Of a DNA stretch of 64,000 bases, positions 20,378 through 45,606 are shown piece after piece. Every line of letters begins with the position of its first letter. The first letter of the stretch is position 1. Made by a program: the position numbers and the translations under genes. A model generated the notes under the pieces. That model made no database searches. It was given only the letters and a program-made list of their open reading frames with translations, and had not been told where the DNA came from. This DNA is from Puniceicoccaceae bacterium (GTDB lineage Bacteria > Verrucomicrobiota > Verrucomicrobiia > Opitutales > Oceanipulchritudinaceae), in the NCBI GenBank assembly GCA_040830765.1, contig JBFOMH010000005.1, positions 224,001 to 288,000 of the forward strand. The letters are read 5' to 3'.

Positions 20378-21259
20378 GTGGATACAGTGGCCCTGAGCGA
20401 ACACATACGCAGCTACTCGACACCCATCGAGCCGTTGCCGACCGGTGCTATTTCCCGGCTTGGTAAGGCTGAAGGAATCCGGGCAGTTGTCTTCGATGTC
20501 TATGGCACTCTTTTCATCAGCGGTTCCGGAGACATCAGTCTGGCCCGCAATGAGGATCGCAGCCCCGCGATAGTCGCCTCCCTGGAGACAGCAGGCTTCC
20601 AGGTGACAGAATCCGCTGCGCCATGGTCGAAGGCCTTCCTGCACCAAATTGAAACGGCCCGGCAGGCTCGCAAGGAACAAGGCATTTCCTACCCCGAAGT
20701 CCGTATTGAAGAAGTCTGGCAGGCGCTGGTCGAAAAGGCCGCAAAGGATGGATGGATACGCGGCACGGGCAGTATCGAACTGGCCATCGTGGACCATGAA
20801 TGCCGGGTCAATCCCTGCTGGCCCATGCCCGGGCTGCAGGAAACACTCGAGGAACTGGGCCGTCGCAAGCTGGCATTGGGCATTGTTTCCAACGCCCAGT
20901 TCTACACCCCCCTGCTCTTTAAGGCACTGCTCAGTAAACCGCTTGAGGATTTTGGGTTAGAGGAAGCCCGCAGCGTCTGGTCCTACATTGAGCGGGAAGG
21001 CAAGCCATCCCGAAACCTGTATCGAAAACTTAAGGACAAATTGGCCACGGAAGGCATCGCCCCCCGTGAAACCCTCTACGTCGGCAACGACATTCGTAAC
21101 GATATCTGGCCCGCCGGCGACCTGGGCTTCCGCACCGTCCTTTTCGCCGGGGATGAGCGCTCGCTGCGCTGGCGCAAGGAGGATCCGGATTGTCAGAATG
21201 TAGAGCCGGAATTCATCATCACCGAACTGGACCAGCTGCTTCAGATTATCGCGCCATAA
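20378..21259 (+). CDS. HAD-family phosphatase
   Basis: Motif I FDVYGTL, SNAQFYT, KPS, YVGND..ND. Confidence 0.85.
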   Translation: MDTVALSEHIRSYSTPIEPLPTGAISRLGKAEGIRAVVFDVYGTLFISGSGDISLARNEDRSPAIVASLETAGFQVTESAAPWSKAFLHQIETARQARKEQGISYPEVRIEEVWQALVEKAAKDGWIRGTGSIELAIVDHECRVNPCWPMPGLQETLEELGRRKLALGIVSNAQFYTPLLFKALLSKPLEDFGLEEARSVWSYIEREGKPSRNLYRKLKDKLATEGIAPRETLYVGNDIRNDIWPAGDLGFRTVLFAGDERSLRWRKEDPDCQNVEPEFIITELDQLLQIIAP

Positions 21260-30834: not shown

Positions 30835-30927
30835 GGAGAGATGGCTGAGTGGCCGAAAGCGCCCGCCTGCTAAGTGGGTATACGGCTTAAAACCGTATCG
30901 AGGGTTCGAATCCCTCTCTCTCCGCCA
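30835..30927 (+). tRNA. tRNA-Ser(GCT)
   Basis: Acceptor GGAGAGA/TCTCTCC-G-CCA, anticodon arm CCCGC-CT-GCT-AA-GTGGG, long variable arm, GGTTCGAATCC. Confidence 0.97.
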
Positions 30928-37036: not shown

Positions 37037-39847
37037 CTACAAATGCTGCCCCGTAACGCTGCGCTTGGCGGTCTTCAGATCGAGCACCGGACCGGCATAG
37101 AGCAGCTCGCCCCCTTCTTCCCCTCCCCCGGGTCCGAGGTCAATGACCCAGTCCGCCAGGCGAATGACATCCAGGTTGTGCTCGATAAGAATCAGCGTCT
37201 GCCCCTGTTCACGCAGTTTGAAGAGCAGGTCCATGAGGTGCTGGATGTCGACCCAGTGGAGTCCCGTCGTCGGCTCGTCGAGCAGGTAGAGGTTCCGGCT
37301 GCGTTGGCTTTTGCTCAGCTCAAGGGATAACTTCAGCCGCTGGGCTTCACCACCGGAGAGGGTTGGCGCTGCCTGTCCCAGCTTGATGTAACCCAAGCCC
37401 ACGGCCTGGAGGGTCTCCAGTTTGGCCAGCACCTTGGGCTGGTGGGCGAAGAGCTTGATCGCCTCGTCAACCGTCATCTCGAGGACATCAGCAATGTTGT
37501 ACCCCTTGAAACGGACTTCCAGGGTCTCCCGGTTGTAACGCTTCCCGTGGCAACTGGGACATTCCGCATAGACATCGCTGAGGAACTGCATGTCCATCTT
37601 GATCAATCCATCCCCCTGGCAGCGTTCGCAGCGGCCGCCCCGGACATTGAAGCTGAAACGCCCGGGTCCATAACCGCGCACCTTCGCCAGTGGGGTTTGC
37701 GCATAAAGCCGCCTGAGGTCATCAAATATCTTTGTAAAGGTCGCCGGATTGGACCGCGGGCTGCGTCCGATCGGATCCTGGTCCACCCGGACGATGCGCT
37801 CGAAATTTTCCAAACCATCCAGGCCCCTATGCCGACCGGGTATATCCTTGGTCCGGTTCAATTTGAAGGCAGCCGCCTTGCCCAGGATCTCATTGACGAG
37901 GGTGCTTTTGCCGGATCCGCTGACTCCCGTAACCACTGTCAGGAGCCCGACTGGAAAGGATACATCCAGCTCCTTGAGGTTGTGTTCATGGGCACCCTTC
38001 ACCGTCACCCAACCCTCATCCGGTTCCTTGACCGGAACCGACCGCTCAACACTGGCCGTCCCCGAGAGAAAGGCCCCGGTACGGGAAGTGCGGGACTTTT
38101 TTGCCGCACTGACAGTTCCCTGGAAAATAACCTCTCCCCCGGCCTCACCCGCTCCCGGTCCGATTTCCAAGAGGTGATCCGCCGCCTCGATGACATCGGG
38201 ATCATGCTCCACCACGATAACGCTGCTTCCTCGCTCCCTGAGACCCTCCAGGGTGGCAATCAGCTTCCTTGTGTTGGCCGGGTGCAGGCCGATTGTCGGT
38301 TCATCCAGAACATAGGTCACTCCGACCAAGCCCATTCCGACCTGCGTGGCCAGTCGAACCCTCTGGGCTTCTCCCCCGCTCAGGCTGCCATAAGGCCGAG
38401 CCAGACTCAAGTAGTGCAAGCCCACCTCGTTCAAGAATACCAAACGGTTCCTCAGGCCATTGACCGCATCTTCAAATCCAGGCAACTCCAGGGATTCAAC
38501 GAAGGTCAGCGCATCCCGCAGGGAATAGCCAAGGAACTCAGAATAACTCAGATCCTTGAGGAGGACGGCTCGTGATGTATCCCGAAGCCGCGTTCCCTGG
38601 CAGTCCTCGCAACCACTCCTTGTCTGGTAAGCCATCAGCCGGTTGCGCAATCCATCGCTGCTGGTATCCCGGCGGGTCTTTTCCAAATCCGCCAGCACAC
38701 CCTCGAAAGGCATTGCCTCCGGCTTGCGGTTGCCCGGTTTCGTCTTGAACAGGAACTCCCTATCCCCCGCCCCGTGGAGAATGACCTGGCGAACCGCTTC
38801 CGGCAATTCCTGCCACGGTGTCGTCGGGTCGAAAGGCAGCTGCTCGGCCAATTGCTTCAAGCGGGCATTGCGTTCAATAATCATCCGCCGCGAGCCTAGC
38901 CGCCATGGCTTGATGGCCCCCTTGCGGACCGACTTCACTGGATCCGGGACAACCAGTTCCGGACTGAATTGTAAAGTCTCGCCAAGTCCACCACAGGAAG
39001 GACAGGCCCCGTCCGGATGGTCCCAGGAGAATTGCTTTGGCGTGACCTCCGGATAAACCGTCCCGCACACCTCGCAGGAAAGGTGTTGGCTGACAACAAA
39101 GGTCGTCCATTCAGCACCCTGCTCCCGCTGGACCATCACTTCCGCCCGGTTGTCCGCCTCCCGGAAGGCCAGTTCGAGGGAATCCGCTATGCGGCTACGC
39201 TGGTCCTCCCTGAGGACCAGGCGGTCGATGACCAGGTCCATCTGATGTTCCGCGCTTCCTTTTGGAAAGAGGTCGCTATCTTCCAATTCGCGAATTTCCC
39301 CGTCCAGCCTGACCCGGAGATATCCCTTTTGTTTGAGGTGGGGAATCTCATTCCGCAGGACAGAGGACTTGGCCCGCATATAAGGGGCGAGGATCATGAA
39401 TCGACTCCCATCCGGCTCCTGGTAGATACGGTCCAGACAGTCATCGAGGGATTTCCGGACTATCTGGCCGCCGTCTTTCGGGCAATGGGCCTTGCCGCAA
39501 AGCGACCATAGCAAGCGGGCATAATCCGCAATTTCCGTGATTGTCGCCACCGTGCTGCGGGGATTGGCTCCCGTCCCTGTGCGCTGCTCAATGGCAATAA
39601 CCGGGGTCAAGCCGTCAATATAGTCCACTTCCGGCCGTTCGATCTGGTCCATTAACTGCCGGGCACGCGTGGACAAGCTGTCCATGAACTTCCGGTAGCC
39701 CTCCGCGAAGATTGTATCAAAGGCCAGCGAGGACTTTCCAGACCCGCTGACACCGGTTACCACCACCAATTGGTCGCGGGGAATTGTCACATCAATTCCC
39801 TTCAGGTTGTGCACGCGTGCGCCTTTTATGTGGATGACTTTCCGCAT
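37037..39847 (-). CDS. uvrA: Excinuclease ABC subunit A
   Basis: Two GVSGSGKS Walker A motifs, two LSGGEAQR motifs, zinc fingers, GARVHNLK. Confidence 0.97.
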
Positions 39848-39920: not shown

Positions 39921-40211
39921 ATGAACGACAAAAGCCCCATAGTCTACATTAAGCCGGGTTGTCCATGGTGCCGTGAAGCACTGGCTTTCTTTTCCGAACA
40001 TGGCGTTCCTCTGGAAATCCGTGATGTTAACTCCGAGCCCCAGAGCATGCAACGCATGGTCGAAATCAGCGGCCAGTCCAAGACACCTACCTTCGAGTTT
40101 GGGGAATTTATTGTCGCCGACTTTGACGTCCAGGAGTTCCTCGACGCCCTTGAGCAGGTTCCCGAAATCAAACAGCAACTTGGTTTCGGCGATAGCGAGG
40201 ACTGGAACTAA
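39921..40211 (+). CDS. Glutaredoxin-family protein
   Basis: CPWC active site and SGQSKTPT. Confidence 0.88.
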
Positions 40212-41599
40212 AACTCCGCATTGCCCGGAGTTCGGGCAAAGGGGATGACGTCCCGGATGTTGGCCACACCCGTGACAAACATCAGCATTCGCTCAAATCC
40301 AAGCCCGAAGCCGGAGTGCGGGGCCGTGCCATAGCGTCGCAAATCCCGGTACCACCAATACTCCTCCTTCGACAAGTCGTGGTGCTCGAGTGCGGCATCC
40401 AGGCGCTCCAGACGCTCCTCACGCTGACTGCCCCCGATTATTTCACCTATTCCCGGAACCAGCACGTCCATGGCGGCAACGGTCTTGTCATCATCATTCT
40501 GGCGCATGTAGAAGGGCTTGATCTCCTTCGGGTAATTGAAAACGGTGACCGGGCGCTGAAAGTGGGTTTCCGTCAGCCAGCGCTCATGCTCACTCTGGAG
40601 ATTGGCCCCATATTCCACCGGGTAGTCGAATTTGACATCCGCTGTTTTCAGCAACTCTACCGCATCGGTATAACTGATGCGCTCAAAGGGCCGTTCCAGC
40701 ACGAACCGCAGGCGTTCATGAAGGCCCTTGTCGACGAATTTGCCGAACATCTCCAGGTCCTCCTGACAATGCTCAAGGATATCCCCGATGAGGTACTTGA
40801 TGAAATCCTCCGCCAAGCCCATGTCGCCTTGCAAATCGCAAAAGGCCATTTCCGGCTCAATCATCCAGAACTCGCTGGCATGACGGGAAGTGTTGGAATT
40901 TTCCGCCCGAAAAGTGGGGCCGAAGGTATAGACATTGCTGTGCGATAAGGCGAATATCTCCGCCTCCAGCTGGCCACTGACCGTCAAGTAGGTTGGCCGG
41001 CCGAAGAAATCCTTTTCATAATCAATGTTCCCGTCCTCGTCCCGTGGCGGATTGCCCGGTTCCAAGGTGGAAACGCGGAACATTTCACCGGCCCCTTCAC
41101 AGTCGCTCGCCGTGATCAACGGCGTGTGCACATAAACGAATCCACGTTCCTGAAAGAACTGGTGCACCGCATAGGAGAGCCGTGAACGAACCCGGAATAC
41201 CGCCCCAAACAGGTTTGCCCGAGGCCGTAGGTGCGCGATCTCACGCATGTACTCCAGCGAGTGACGCTTCTTCTGCAGGGGATAACTCTCCTCCGCCTGT
41301 CCGATCAGCTCCAGCTCAGTGGCCTTGATCTCCCAGCGTTGGCCCTTCCCCTGGCTCTCCACAAGCTCCCCGGCCATCCGCACAGCTGAACCAGTCGTGA
41401 AGGCGTGGATGTTATCATACCCGGGACACCCTTCATCGGCAATTACCTGCAAATTCGCCAGGGAACTGCCGTCGTTTAATTCAATAAAGGAAAAGCCCTT
41501 CGAATCCCGCCGGGTCCGTACCCAGCCATACACTTCTACCGCATCGATCGGTCCGTCGGATTCCAGGGCTTCTTTTACTCTCAGTCTTTGCAAGCTCAT
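40208..41599 (-). CDS. asnS: Asparagine--tRNA ligase
   Basis: [43 protein letters not shown]. Confidence 0.97.
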
Positions 41600-41640
41600 A
41601 AGTTGCTCCTACTCCTACATCCCCGGCAGCTTCCATAAAG

Positions 41641-41684
41641 CAAAAAAACAAAAAGGCCCTGCTCCCCAAAGGGAACAGGACCTT
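41641..41684 (-). terminator. Intrinsic terminator closing the large ncRNA candidate
   Basis: Minus strand AAGGTCCTGTTCCC-TTTG-GGGAGCAGGGCCTT then TTTGTTTTTTTG. Confidence 0.9.
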
Positions 41685-42553
41685 AAAATGTGGGACGGCG
41701 CTCGCCACACGCTCTTTCCCGGTTGCTGACATTTGGCGCTCGTGATTCTTCATCATGGCTGCCAGCTCCCCGACGCTATTCTCCGAGGCACTTCGGAGTC
41801 CCGGCCTCGTAGCAGGGCCGTAGATGGAATTACTCCCATCTAATTCAAGAGTGAGGCCTCTCAGCATGGTCACCCCACAGGTGCTACCTGCGGACCTTCC
41901 TTACCCGCCGAGGATATCGCTGTAATCCGGTATCCTCCGCGATTCTTCCCAAGGTCGGCTCCACTGTCTCCAGCGGACGTTTGCCTTGAGTTACGGGTCT
42001 GACCTCTTACCTCTCGGGGATGCGTTCAGTTTACAGGCAGTCGACTCGGTTTTTCGAGCCCACTGCTTCTCGAAGGAAACCTGCGGCTGTTGTCATGTAC
42101 TCGGCCGCCTGTTTCCCCGCTTACCAAGACGTTTTCGCTGCACCGACGTTTTTCCGGTCGCTTATGGTGAGATTAGCCCTCACCCGCCTCGCCAAACGGA
42201 CGAACTGCACGGTAACATCCCTTGACCTTCCAGGTCACCGCGTTGAAGTCTCCCAGGGCACAACCCCTTCGGATCCTTCTAACTCAACCTGCTGGCATTG
42301 TGCTTGGCCTCGCTCTCGCTCGGCCGCCAGCCGATCGCCGGTCGTGTGCTTTCACAATTCAGGGCTGTGTGACCAACCCTGGCACCGACGGTGAAATTTG
42401 CCTCACTTCCTGGAGCCTTTAGTGGACGTCTCCTCAGAGCCGCCCGACTCCCCTCCATGAGGAGCCAGATTCGTTCGATAAACCTGACTGTTCCCCGGTT
42501 ACCCGGGATTATCCTGGGGCTTTCGAGTTGAATGCCCGTTCTTTCAAAGAACT
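41641..42553 (-). ncRNA. Large (~910 nt) structured noncoding RNA candidate, MISL-like or novel
   Basis: No credible ORF, bounded by promoter and terminator. More than 15 hairpins by eye, several with GNRA loops and G-U pairs on the minus strand. Confidence 0.75.
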
Positions 42554-42559
42554 GACCAT

Positions 42560-42589
42560 ATTGTGCTCTTCAGGGGTCCCGACTGTCAA
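42560..42589 (-). promoter_or_regulatory. Sigma70-type promoter of the ncRNA candidate
   Basis: TTGACA (42589-84), 18 nt, then CACAAT (42565-60). Predicted start near 42553. Confidence 0.7.
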
Positions 42590-42615
42590 CCCTAAAACAT
42601 TCGTTATCAACGTTT

Positions 42616-42741
42616 TGTGAACAATCAAAGGTTATTGACACTCGCTTTTTACAACCTGTTCGTAAGTCCCTCATTTGGATGGCGATACACACCGGAGCCA
42701 ATGTGAATAACTTCGCTTTTTCTGTGAGTTAGTGTGAACAA
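42616..42741. promoter_or_regulatory. Cluster of DnaA-box-like 9-mers in AT-rich spacer
   Basis: TGTGAATAA at 42702 (fits TTWTNCACA), TGTGAACAA at 42616 and 42733, TTATTGACA at 42632 (one mismatch each). Confidence 0.55.
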
Positions 42742-42828: not shown

Positions 42829-43824
42829 TCAGGGATTGGCCTCGAGGTCCTGATCGAGAGCCTCCCGGATGGCATTGACCTCAATGGCAATGGCCTGAAC
42901 GAGCTGTATTTGCTCATAGAAAGAGGCTTCCTGTTCCGGATTCTGAAAGAGGACCCGCTGTTCACGGGGATTGTAGGACCAAGTTCCCCAGGCCTCACGG
43001 AGGACGTTGAGGGCGGCAATGGCGGAGCCAAGCAGGCGAACCTCGAGCTGCCGCAGGTCATAGACGCGGGATCGCTCCCAGAATTGGAGCACGCGTTCCA
43101 TTTCGGCAATGGCGATACGGTCGGCCGGGGGTTGCAGGTCCAGAGACTCGATTGAGCGCGTATAAGTATCCTCGAAGGACTCGATGAACTGGGTGAAGGC
43201 CCGGGTCTGTTCATAGAGCACCCTGTGGGCAGCCAATTCGACTTCCAGTTGGTCGATGGTCCGAAACCGAATCCACGATTCGGGGCCTTTGGTGGGATTG
43301 GCCTCCATGGCGGCGGCATAGGCTTCGGACTGGGCATCCAAGGCCTCGCGCATTTGCTGGTCCAGCTGCCGCAGGGCATCCAAGGTATCATACGGGATTC
43401 TGCCCTCATACTGGACAAAACGGTCCGTCTGGCCCCGCTGCTCCCGCTCGGCCCTCTCGGCGGCCCTTCGTTCCTCCTCGGCCTTGGCGAGGCGAAGCCG
43501 TTGCAATCTCAACTGTTCACGGGAGTCCTGTATGGCCTCCTGCCGGGCGCTATCCCGGTCGGCCTGGTTCTCGCGGGCAAGTATCAATGGAAAGATTAGA
43601 AGACAGCCCGCCAATCCGACAATCGCCCAAGAGATGAGGACCGGATCCCGGGCAAAAAGCCAGCGGGCGATCAGATTCAGGCAAATCCCCGTGGCGGTAA
43701 TCGCCACTGGCCAGACCAGATGAAAGAGAGTCCCCTGCAGCCATGGGACATCGGGATACCATCCGGTCAGCAGGTAGTATCCCAGCCCCATCAAGACGCA
43801 AACAATTGCCAGAATTAGCCTCAT
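42829..43824 (-). CDS. Hypothetical membrane protein with coiled coil
   Basis: Three N-terminal hydrophobic helices, E/R/Q-rich helical remainder. ATGA overlap with tatD stop. Confidence 0.75.
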   Translation of the reverse strand: MRLILAIVCVLMGLGYYLLTGWYPDVPWLQGTLFHLVWPVAITATGICLNLIARWLFARDPVLISWAIVGLAGCLLIFPLILARENQADRDSARQEAIQDSREQLRLQRLRLAKAEEERRAAERAEREQRGQTDRFVQYEGRIPYDTLDALRQLDQQMREALDAQSEAYAAAMEANPTKGPESWIRFRTIDQLEVELAAHRVLYEQTRAFTQFIESFEDTYTRSIESLDLQPPADRIAIAEMERVLQFWERSRVYDLRQLEVRLLGSAIAALNVLREAWGTWSYNPREQRVLFQNPEQEASFYEQIQLVQAIAIEVNAIREALDQDLEANP

Positions 43825-44627
43825 GCCGGTTCCAAGCCGTAGAACTGAAGGGCGTTCCGTGTCGTGATTCGAGCCAAATCCTCCATGCTGATGCCGAACA
43901 GTTCGGCTGCAAAACGGCCGATGTGGGCCACGTTGGCGGGCTCATTCGGCTGGCCCCTCATTGGTTCCGGGGTCAGGTAAGGCGAATCCGTTTCCAGCAT
44001 GAGTCTTTCCAGTCCCTGTTCCAGGGCAGCTTGGCGAATGGGCTCCGCGGAGGCATTCTTATAGGTCAGGATACCGGTGAAGGAAGCCCGTCCACCGCGG
44101 CTGTTGATTTCGCGGACCAGTTCGGGCCCGTCAGTAAAGCAGTGAAAGACAACCCGCTGCCAATCCACTCCGCTCTGGTCAATCAGGCGGATGCATTCCT
44201 TGACGGCATTGCGCGAATGAATGACCACCGGACAGTCCAATTGGTAGGCAAGCGTCAACTGGTCCTTAAAAACACGTTCCTGCAGGGCCTTCAGCTCGGC
44301 AGCTTCATCGGGATACTTGGGCATGTGAAAGTGGTCCAGTCCAATTTCGCCAAGGGCGACTGGTTGAGGGTCGGTCCCGAAATAGGTCGGGATGGCCTTT
44401 ATCTGCTCTCCCCAGTCGTCATCAATGTCGCAGGGATGAATACCAACCGTCCAGTCGACCCGGCCGCTCTCGCGAGCCGTGAGACGATAATAAGTTTCCC
44501 AGTCCTTCTGGCTCGTTCCCACGGTAATGCAGCGGTGGACTCCAGCGGCCTGCATCCGCTCCAGCACAGCTTCCCCTTCTCCCCGGGTAAGTGCCTTTTC
44601 CAAGTGACAATGGGTATCGATCAGCAT
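43821..44627 (-). CDS. tatD: TatD-family nuclease
   Basis: IDTHCHL, GIHP, GEIGLD, IHSR, FHCF, ETDSPYL.P. Confidence 0.93.
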   Translation of the reverse strand: MLIDTHCHLEKALTRGEGEAVLERMQAAGVHRCITVGTSQKDWETYYRLTARESGRVDWTVGIHPCDIDDDWGEQIKAIPTYFGTDPQPVALGEIGLDHFHMPKYPDEAAELKALQERVFKDQLTLAYQLDCPVVIHSRNAVKECIRLIDQSGVDWQRVVFHCFTDGPELVREINSRGGRASFTGILTYKNASAEPIRQAALEQGLERLMLETDSPYLTPEPMRGQPNEPANVAHIGRFAAELFGISMEDLARITTRNALQFYGLEPA

Positions 44628-44724
44628 GCCTCTTCAATGAGCCAGAATATGAAGGAACTTCAACTGTTATCCTATTGTTCTTTTTAGTTTGAAAGGAACC
44701 CACTTTTCCCATTCTCATGATTGC

Positions 44725-45606
44725 ATGATTGGTGAACGTCTAGAAGAGGGTCGCAAACGCAAGGGAGTATCCATCCGCGAGGCAGCGGAAGCCACCAAAA
44801 TCCGGGGAGATTATCTTCTGGCAATGGAGGACAACTCCTTCGACATTCCCCTGCCACAAATTTATGTCCGTGGCTTCCTGAAGAACTACGCCCGCTACCT
44901 GAAGCTTGATCCAAACAAGATCCTTACGGATTACGATGCGCACCTCCTTGGCAAATCAACCCGGCCGGCAGGTTCAGGAACCCGCAGTGACCGCGATTCC
45001 CTCGGTCAGGTGGAAATCCCGGAGGAACGCGAGGAAGAAGAGGACCGCGTGGTTATTACCGAAGCACCCGAGGATGAGGGTCCCGATCCGGAGCTTACTT
45101 TCAACCTGGGGCAAAGGGAGCGCCCAGCCCCGCCCCCGCCAACCCTCGACCGGGAAGCAACCCGCCACGACCAGGAGTCATGGAATGAAAACAAGACCCT
45201 GTATATAAAGATCGGGGTTGTTTTTGCGGCCATCCTGCTGGTTTCCATTATCCTGATTGTCATGATCCAACTCCTCACCCGGGAAAAGGATACACCGGCA
45301 ATTAATCCCGAGCTGGCAACAACCCCGGCGGAAACCGTCCAGACCCAGCCCGAGGTTGTCACGGGAGGGATTACCCGCGACAGCATCCTGATCACCGCTT
45401 CCGACAACCTCACCGTAATCGTCGAGCAAACCGTGGACCGGAAGCGCCTGTTCAGTGGCTCACTCAATACCGGGGAAACCCTCTCCTTGGAAAAGGAAGG
45501 TCCGGTCTCCATCCGTTTTACCAACGGCTCCGCCCTGACGATTGAGAAGGATGGCCAGAAGTTCCGTCCGCAGCAGACGGGGGTTGGCCGGACAGTGGTC
45601 GACTAG
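44725..45606 (+). CDS. RodZ-like HTH membrane protein
   Basis: IGERLEEGR..ATKIR..YVRGFLKNYARYL, single TM, C-terminal beta domain. Start ATG 44725. Confidence 0.85.
   Translation: MIGERLEEGRKRKGVSIREAAEATKIRGDYLLAMEDNSFDIPLPQIYVRGFLKNYARYLKLDPNKILTDYDAHLLGKSTRPAGSGTRSDRDSLGQVEIPEEREEEEDRVVITEAPEDEGPDPELTFNLGQRERPAPPPPTLDREATRHDQESWNENKTLYIKIGVVFAAILLVSIILIVMIQLLTREKDTPAINPELATTPAETVQTQPEVVTGGITRDSILITASDNLTVIVEQTVDRKRLFSGSLNTGETLSLEKEGPVSIRFTNGSALTIEKDGQKFRPQQTGVGRTVVD

Follow-up and report, generated by a model that had tools for sequence, protein, structure and literature searches.

Several bacterial noncoding RNAs of very large size, such as OLE, ROOL and GOLLD, were orphans without known function when they were first catalogued. 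MISL, a large noncoding RNA family catalogued from Verrucomicrobia, belongs to the small set of very large and strongly conserved RNAs of bacteria that still lack an assigned function. Here we describe a member of this family in a stretch of 64,000 nucleotides (nt) from the genome of a Puniceicoccaceae bacterium (GenBank assembly GCA_040830765.1, contig JBFOMH010000005.1, positions 224,001 to 288,000; the window hereafter). The minus-strand segment 41641-42589 of the window is, almost certainly, a complete gene for MISL RNA (RF03079), a structured noncoding RNA of Verrucomicrobiota roughly 0.75-0.9 kilobases (kb) long. Because the family is in Rfam, the finding as such is already known and nothing about the locus is categorically new; comparison of at least 119 loci nevertheless sharpens the picture of the gene, with its predicted promoter-to-terminator ends, a conserved 5' element, three pseudoknots and occasional second copies. 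These features offer concrete starting points for experimental work on an orphan RNA from a phylum commonly met with in soil, water and guts.

MISL resembles OLE, ROOL and GOLLD in size, in the many conserved nucleotides in junctions and loops, and in having multiple pseudoknots; it differs from them in the lack of any sequence or structure-model match, in its occurrence in another phylum, and in that no prophage or transfer RNA (tRNA) association was found in 16 annotated MISL loci. GOLLD, ROOL and OLE are reported to form RNA-only multimers (10.1101/2024.12.08.627333); MISL is not mentioned in that text. In our literature search, MISL RNA was named only in the Ribonanza preprint, in which a synthetic "window" of one such RNA is reported to have been probed by chemical mapping; no publication joining MISL with Verrucomicrobia or GOLLD came up, and a search for RF03079 returned one false match, an open reading frame (ORF) number. 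The main text of PMC5737381, probably the source of MISL, contains neither "MISL" nor "Verrucomicrobia". Within this search, which covered neither the seed alignment of the family nor the supplement of PMC5737381, we found no earlier account of the 5' element, of the conserved terminator and the pseudoknots, or of genomes with two copies.

Identity and range of the MISL locus

At gathering thresholds, just two Rfam families match anywhere in the window, a tRNA and MISL RNA, the latter at 41697-42514 on the minus strand with a score of 338.4 bits against the gathering score of 274.6 (E 1.8e-100). The match spans positions 1-751 of the 751-position model, is not truncated, and occurs on the minus strand only; given that RF03079 is matched end to end above the gathering score, the locus qualifies as a full member of the family. 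In a permissive scan (E≤5) of 41550-42700, the best match besides MISL had an E value of 0.13. The other families that surfaced, namely, a small nucleolar RNA (E 0.13), an antisense RNA (E 0.78) and a Mg riboswitch (E 4.8), all scored far under their gathering thresholds and were rejected, and the models of OLE, ROOL, GOLLD, RNase P and group I and II introns had no match in the region at either the gathering or the E≤5 threshold. Given the full-length match above the gathering score and the covariation described below, the Rfam match is very unlikely to be an artefact.

An earlier interpretation of this DNA, made from the letters and ORFs alone (the sequence-only reading), had placed here a stand-alone structured RNA gene, in a gap between asnS and the tatD operon with no credible protein, and had proposed that the RNA was either related to MISL or the founding member of a new giant class. 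ORF and Pfam annotation confirms the gap, which extends for about 1.2 kb on the minus strand between the gene for a class II aminoacyl-tRNA synthetase and an ORF at 42829-43824; the stand-alone structured RNA gene is supported by the RF03079 match, by covariation and by a terminator of its own. The first of the two identities holds, in a stronger form than had been put forward, the locus being a full-length family member at 338.4 bits, and the same full-length match excludes the second. Thus, the Rfam scan that the sequence-only reading had called for confirmed the RNA and, the family being already in Rfam, removed the novelty behind the high interest assigned to it.

Compared to the Rfam description of the family, the window copy has the same conserved blocks and helices, and matches over the full length; it differs in having a 44-nt variable region and an extra 20-nt hairpin. 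In addition, the gene includes a conserved 5' element, a hairpin and a terminator that are outside the model, and the model, which is nested, is without the three covarying pseudoknots (PK1-PK3). The features of the gene are listed below in the direction of transcription (L followed by a number denotes a homologous locus).

42584-42589, minus strand: -35-like hexamer TTGACA; the same hexamer is present in L019 and L034
42560-42565, minus strand: -10-like hexamer CACAAT after an 18-nt spacer; the A at hexamer position 2 and the T at position 6 (-12 and -8 from the 5' motif) are conserved across homologs
42538-42552, minus strand: 5' element GUUCUUUGAAAGAAC, BoxA-like, outside the Rfam model, at the predicted transcript start; family consensus GUUCYUUGAWAGAAC
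42515-42537, minus strand: leader hairpin P0 (GGGC..GCCC), between the 5' element and model position 1; the 39-nt leader folds with z -3.29
41697-42514, minus strand: MISL core, RF03079 model 1-751
42473-42477, minus strand: PK1 5' strand CGAAC, in the apical loop of the second hairpin, pairing with 42201-42205
42411-42454, minus strand: variable region, 44 nt against 18 model positions in the RF03079 alignment; its length varies strongly among homologs
42305-42324, minus strand: 20-nt inserted hairpin GCCGAGCGAGAGCGAGGCCA, in insert states of the model and a gap in most aligned homologs; this is the GGCC..GGCC hairpin with tandem G.A pairs (42325-42306) of the sequence-only reading
42215-42221, minus strand: PK2 5' strand GGGAUGU, pairing with 42017-42023
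42201-42205, minus strand: PK1 3' strand GUUCG, in a linker about 270 nt downstream of its partner (alignment scan)
42031-42036, minus strand: PK3 5' strand CUGUAA, pairing with 41920-41925
42017-42023, minus strand: PK2 3' strand GCAUCCC, directly 5' of the invariant GAGAGGUAAGAGG block (alignment scan)
41849-42013, minus strand: long-range Rfam helix GAG..GAGG (42013-42003) / CCUC.CUC (41856-41849), enclosing three hairpin domains
41920-41925, minus strand: PK3 3' strand UUACAG, in the loop of the hairpin 41938-41909 (alignment scan)
41641-41684, minus strand: intrinsic terminator, recognized by its T-run and by folding, with a 14-bp (base pair) stem (41684-41653), a UUUG loop, and then UUUGUUUUUUU

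Genome contigs were scanned with an exact pattern of the invariant core (21 specified bases), which yielded at least 119 loci, the genome of the window not being among them; flanks of up to 4 kb were obtained for 80 of these. An nhmmer profile built from 19 delimited MISL sequences matches all 119 listed loci, and 19 of the 20 loci scanned with Rfam pass the gathering score, at 337-589 bits, the one miss (L046) being cut by a contig end; at 338 bits, the window copy is among the most divergent of the scanned members. The labels of 116 of the 119 listed loci place them in Verrucomicrobiota (mostly Opitutaceae/Opitutales, with some Verrucomicrobiales, Chthoniobacter and Verrucomicrobiia), in agreement with what we take to be the range of the family; among the remaining three, two are labelled just "bacterium" and one is in an assembly labelled Stutzerimonas. 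The homologs, the collection of which had been suggested in the sequence-only reading, are thus almost entirely verrucomicrobial by label. The nearest relatives among the listed loci are L019, which comes from an Opitutales metagenome-assembled genome (MAG) and is 82% identical over 917 columns that include the leader and the terminator, L103 (86%, partial) and L046 (86% over the 3' part), the last of these from Oceanipulchritudo sp., a genus placed in Opitutia, Puniceicoccales.

Some genomes carry two copies. One Opitutales MAG contains a 1174-nt promoter-to-terminator cassette at two places, 99.4% identical and in unrelated contexts (L027:3633-4806 and L059:3633-4805), and the isolate Horticoccus sp. 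23ND18S-11 has two copies that are 81% identical (L066 and L101).

Two of the listed copies are unusual. In the assembly labelled Stutzerimonas marianensis, a MISL of the Verrucomicrobia type occupies a whole 858-nt scaffold (L016:1-858; 432.9 bits) and contains an internal 92-nt tandem duplication, the nearest relatives being L005, L020 and L075 at 70-78% identity; contamination of that assembly is the most likely source of the scaffold. The L021 copy is matched by the nhmmer profile over its 3' half alone (L021:3970-4348, profile positions 432-766), with the 5' motif located 870 nt upstream of the core; the 5' half of this copy may be much expanded or divergent.

Conserved fold, pseudoknots and predicted ends

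The 915-nt minus-strand RNA folds at -402.5 kcal/mol, compared to -336.3 ± 7.4 kcal/mol for 20 dinucleotide shuffles (z -8.9; none of the 20 folded as well), and the plus strand of the same stretch gives a z of -3.85. Comparative evidence comes from a MAFFT alignment of 70 sequences, that is, the window copy and 69 distinct full-length homologs of 696-817 nt (L059 was dropped as a duplicate of L027), which has 918 columns and onto which the Rfam structure was projected through the window row. Mapped on the window, this structure comprises 169 nested pairs, 157 canonical and 12 non-canonical, and the blocks that are invariant in the alignment are all present in the window, namely, the GGAUAAU start, GAGAGNUAAGAGG..AGACCCGUA, GCCUCACUC, GCGUCGGGGA and GUGGCGA. 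The Rfam structure pairs 74.1% of the alignment cells, compared to 64.3% in shuffles (none of the 500 reaches the observed value) and to 38-47% when the partner is slid by 1-3 columns. Changes on both sides are found in 127 of the 169 pairs, a count that is also beyond all 500 shuffles. RNAalifold, run without input from Rfam, predicts 148 pairs, 115 of these with compensatory changes. Both the comparison with dinucleotide shuffles and the test of covariation had been named in the sequence-only reading, and both agree with its view of the locus as a structured RNA on the minus strand.

Among the 13 hairpins drawn in that reading, 11 coincide with consensus helices of RF03079 and two lie outside the model. 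The GCAGU/ACUGC hairpin is absent from the Rfam structure, yet it is predicted by RNAalifold, with compensatory changes. Two other pairings proposed by RNAalifold, one between the 5' and 3' ends (columns 10-23/894-907) and one between columns 574-578 and 839-843, show little or no compensatory change and were set aside. In the long-range helix 42013-42003/41856-41849, all seven pairs are standard in all 70 sequences; six of these are invariant and one varies one-sidedly, so that covariation is neutral on this helix.

Crossing pairs cannot be represented in a covariance model. We scanned the 70-sequence alignment for antiparallel stacks of at least four columns, each at least 90% canonical and with two-sided changes in at least two columns; the scan recovered the known helices along with three long-range ones, PK1, PK2 and PK3, each of which crosses a hairpin of the nested structure. 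All five pairs of PK1 change on both sides and 99.4% of the cells pair, the variants being CUGGU/ACCAG (53 sequences), CUGGC/GCCAG, CGAAC/GUUCG (the window form), CGGAU/AUCCG and CUGAC/GUCAG. In PK2, two-sided changes are found in five of the six pairs, with variants that include GGUUGC/GCAACC (35 sequences), GGCUGC/GCAGCC (15) and AGUUGC/GCAACU (3); the window row is one column off register here in the MAFFT alignment, and the pairing in the window was verified directly. PK3, in which 98.6% of the cells pair, has variants that include CUGCAA/UUGCAG (47 sequences), CUGCGA/UCGCGG (5) and CUGUAA/UUACAG (2; the window form). Stacks at columns 11-18:701-704, 461-464:640-643 and 42-47:142-147 were dropped on account of conflict with well-supported helices or with PK1.

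The ends of the gene lie beyond those of the Rfam model. When 72 sequences are anchored on the 5' motif, two conserved promoter-like blocks come into view, a -35-like one (-37..-32) and a -10-like one (-13..-8) that keeps the usual A and T, which implies that the motif begins at the predicted start or one to two nt after it. In the window, transcription would accordingly be expected to start near 42553, from the gene's own sigma-70-type promoter. At the other end, the segment with the terminator (41640-41700) has a folding energy of -27.4 kcal/mol (z -4.86). Downstream flanks of 100 nt or more were available for 70 sequences; under the criterion of a stem of at least six pairs and at least five T in eight positions, 56 of these 70 have a terminator that begins 10-17 nt past the last position of the model, as opposed to 1 of 70 for the opposite strand of the same segments. 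The minus-strand bracket noticed in the sequence-only reading, TTGACA-18-CACAAT at 42589..42560 and a strong terminator at 41684..41653, is thus found as described, and its promoter-to-terminator boundaries turn out to be better than those of the Rfam model, in that homologs keep the 5' element, the hairpin and the terminator beyond the model.

Several points weigh against this picture of the RNA and its ends. On the sequence-only alignment, 10 of the 27 Rfam helices pair poorly (27-60% of cells), which we attribute to the divergent window row being out of register; RNAalifold recovers most of these helices, shifted by one or two columns to the majority register, with many compensatory changes. 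For the pseudoknots taken together, 97.6% of the cells pair compared to 20-43.5% when the strands are slid, with two-sided changes in 13 of the 17 pairs, but these controls are flattering because the helices were picked on the same alignment that was used for the counting. The start site and the 3' end are predictions. Among the 70 sequences, a strict sigma-70 consensus is found upstream in just 5, compared to 2 in the control, and the proposed promoter rests on the weaker conserved blocks instead.

The promoters of Opitutaceae MISL genes contain another conserved block, GGTGAA..TTGTG.A.AACAAA, at -52..-38 from the motif, just upstream of the -35-like element (for example, in L066, L002 and L012); the window and L019 do not have it. 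This block may be an UP-element-like sequence or a regulator site.

The 5' element and its possible relation to BoxA

The strict pattern GUUCYUUGAWAGAAC has a single match in the 64-kb window. Across 541 kb searched on both strands (76 loci with enough flank), there are 65 matches, all of them on the sense strand and upstream of MISL, and of the 71 full-length sequences (the window and 70 loci), 66 have a looser form of the motif no more than 200 nt upstream; at least two of the five misses (L022 and L076) have no upstream flank. The segment between the motif and the model start is 23-102 nt long in homologs and forms a single hairpin in the 10 examples inspected; the median z of the homolog leader segments is -2.2, with 39 of 66 below -2.

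The first eight nucleotides of the element, GUUCYUUG, fit G-Y-U-C-Y-U-U-R at all eight positions, the reference being the BoxA of gamma-proteobacteria and Aquifex, which may not be that of the host; neither the window nor the loci scanned with Rfam contain an rRNA operon. The key BoxA positions G2, C5 and C/U6 are in place, and the core is conserved in 66 of the 71 sequences. In PMC5725501, the gamma-proteobacterial BoxA consensus is given as GYTCTTTAANA, and noncoding RNAs were not considered in the boxA search described there. PMC3177189 gives the Aquifex BoxA 12-mer as GGC UCC UUG GCA, with eight nucleotides recognised by NusB-NusE; G2, C5 and C6/U6 are critical, and G9A was judged tolerable. 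According to PMC10250234, E. coli boxA is necessary and sufficient for assembly of the ribosomal RNA (rRNA) antitermination complex, which may chaperone RNA folding. No BoxA-related literature was found for GTTCTTTGA, as judged by titles and abstracts. Like the BoxA of rRNA leaders, the MISL element fits the 8-nt core bound by NusB-NusE and would be located early in a long, untranslated, highly structured transcript; it differs in its position, at about +2 rather than after a boxB hairpin, in its extension into a palindrome, and in that no boxC was identified.

Since GUUCYUUG fits the BoxA core, rRNA-style antitermination is possible, and whether the element is a BoxA, with MISL made under Nus-factor antitermination, is in our judgment close to an even call that falls slightly on the negative side. 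Under this scheme, the BoxA at the very 5' end of the RNA would bring NusB-NusE, and with it the remaining Nus factors, to the polymerase in the manner of rRNA operons, and these would shield the long untranslated transcript from Rho and aid its folding during synthesis. Apart from this scheme, the RNA would be made from its own sigma-70-type promoter with the start at about 42553, be released at the terminator with a length of roughly 910 nt and fold into a compact pseudoknotted body, held by the one invariant long-range helix and the three pseudoknots. It would act in trans, and its many invariant unpaired nucleotides and the complexity of its fold point to the core of a ribonucleoprotein (RNP) or to a ribozyme as the most likely role, a proposal for which we see the chances as evenly balanced. 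The combined picture, in which MISL is transcribed like rRNA, a near-invariant BoxA at its first nucleotides recruits the Nus-factor antitermination and chaperone complex, and the product is a triple-pseudoknotted globular body resembling a ribozyme or a lineage-specific RNP core, is doubtful as a whole. To our knowledge, no stand-alone noncoding RNA has been described as being under BoxA control outside rRNA operons, though no search aimed at this was made. If true, the BoxA control of MISL could be the first such case, would widen the known remit of the Nus factors and would make BoxA a handle for finding other hidden structural RNAs.

BoxA has to be weighed against a different interpretation of the same element, namely, that it is a 5'-terminal stem-loop, which would stabilise the RNA or mark it for processing, or else an operator in the DNA, GTTC-N7-GAAC, to which a dimeric regulator would bind at the start site; this we regard as quite possible, without being probable. 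The motif is an inverted repeat the arms of which, GUUC and GAAC, are both nearly invariant, and it overlaps the predicted +1; BoxA explains neither the conserved GAAC at motif positions 12-15 nor the palindromic shape. The window element can fold as a 6-bp hairpin, and the arm variants GAGC (L020 and L075) and GAAU (L003 and L041) retain G-U pairing, which suits an RNA stem. However, the commonest variant, GUUCCUUGAUAGAAC (42 of 66), has just a 4-bp stem, with no covariation at the inner positions, the two copies L027 and L059 end in GAAA, which breaks the stem, and the conserved "loop" UUGA is needed by the BoxA core. Two further considerations tell against BoxA. With so much structure, the RNA may have no need to be shielded from Rho. 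In addition, the 9-nt form GYTCYTTRA has 11 matches in the window (for example, at 20914, 35232, 38023 and 49702) compared to 3.2 expected from shuffles, this core being too short to carry information there. The surplus of matches may be due to codon usage; the one site examined of the 11, the E. coli-like one at 20914, is inside the ORF 20378-21259. The BoxA and the stem-loop or operator interpretations can both hold.

Genomic context and alternative interpretations of the locus

Flanking ORFs of the 79 loci with at least 3 kb were grouped by single-linkage clustering, in which high-GC shadow ORFs inflate the clusters. A TypA/BipA GTPase cluster is located downstream of MISL on the same strand in 55 of these loci, and an HrpB-type DEAH helicase cluster upstream on the opposite strand in 38. 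In the divergent loci, the arrangement with TypA/BipA, HrpB and RDD was not found; among 83 flanking ORFs of 16 such loci compared to Pfam, there was no neighbour common across loci, the genes being those for photolyase, LexA, sigma-70, AhpC, a Glu/Gln-tRNA-synthetase-like protein (on the opposite strand) and adenylosuccinate synthetase, among others. Because the divergent loci lack it, the TypA/BipA-HrpB arrangement appears to reflect synteny within a clade and not a functional link, and a conserved partner gene was rejected, these neighbours being limited to one clade; that no protein gene accompanies MISL in every clade also counts against the proposed role of the RNA.

The most immediate alternative, given the local arrangement, is that MISL is a giant cis-acting leader, similar to a riboswitch or a T-box, that controls asnS via the terminator 41684-41653. 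Indeed, MISL and asnS are on the same strand, with about 50 nt between the end of the terminator and the start of asnS; furthermore, in L068 and L077, the gene beside MISL has the catalytic domain of a class I Glu/Gln-tRNA synthetase. These synthetase-like genes, however, are on the opposite strand, and AsnS is found downstream of MISL, by tblastn, in just L019 and L046 among the 119 listed loci (79 with at least 3 kb), whereas TypA/BipA occupies this place in 55 of the 79; in the 16 divergent loci, the neighbours are unrelated across loci. The terminator is conserved whatever the neighbour, and no T-box or riboswitch model matched in the region. The leader interpretation is therefore largely refuted by the varying gene context and is left with very little probability; given that the asnS linkage is limited to two relatives, we infer that MISL is an independent, trans-acting gene. 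An equally slim chance is left for MISL belonging to mobile DNA, for example, as what remains of a group II intron or as a guide or scaffold RNA associated with a transposon or retron. The duplicated 1174-nt cassette in one MAG and a DDE transposase fragment about 3.3-4 kb upstream of the copy in L059 would fit this possibility, but the 83 flanking ORFs compared to Pfam in 16 loci include no reverse transcriptase, TnpB/IscB or integrase. Moreover, gene order is stable in 55 of 79 loci, the genomes have one or two MISL copies each, and no intron or transposon RNA model matched in the region.

That the region codes for one or more small proteins, with the structure merely incidental, is barely credible. 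There are short ORFs on both strands, for example, one of 59 amino acids (aa) at 42279-42458 on the minus strand and one of 124 aa at 42020-42394 on the plus strand. Mismatches between the window and L019, however, are distributed as 42/43/42 by position modulo 3 (p 0.78-0.99 in three comparisons), seven of the nine runs of insertions or deletions between the two are not multiples of 3, and the 59-aa sense ORF contains a stop as read in L020, its translation being not conserved in the four other homologs read; the strong covariation of base pairs likewise counts against coding. The sequence-only reading had named codon-type conservation of one of the short ORFs as grounds for giving up a noncoding RNA; with no codon periodicity and the 59-aa ORF not kept, the noncoding interpretation stands.

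With MISL taken as an independent RNA gene, its closest protein-coding neighbours in the window, all on the minus strand, are the following.

40208-41599, minus strand: asnS, class II aminoacyl-tRNA synthetase, with Pfam tRNA-synt_2 and OB anticodon domains
42829-43824, minus strand: 331-aa ORF with no Pfam match at E≤0.001; its 52% identity to a sequence of L019 found by tblastn suggests that it is a genuine gene, though of no known family
43821-44627, minus strand: TatD, which comes after the ORF 42829-43824

Among the loci compared, TatD, the 331-aa ORF, RodZ and UvrA are common to the window and L019 only. In the window, UvrA (936 aa) is encoded at 37037-39847 on the minus strand, downstream of asnS, and a RodZ-like protein (HTH_25 and RodZ_C domains) at 44689-45606 on the plus strand, divergent from the tatD operon. 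A weak hairpin followed by a U8 run (about 42820-42777) is found 3' of the stop codon of the ORF 42829-43824.

In the main Opitutaceae group, MISL is often located between a divergent gene for the HrpB-type helicase and the downstream gene for TypA/BipA, both RNA- or ribosome-related; in the representative locus L079 (L079:2168-5751), a small RDD-family gene adjoins MISL on the opposite strand. The other Rfam match in the window, a tRNA-Ser with the anticodon GCU and a long variable arm, is located on the plus strand at 30835-30927 (the Rfam match covers 30835-30924), and Rfam and ARAGORN agree on its identity.

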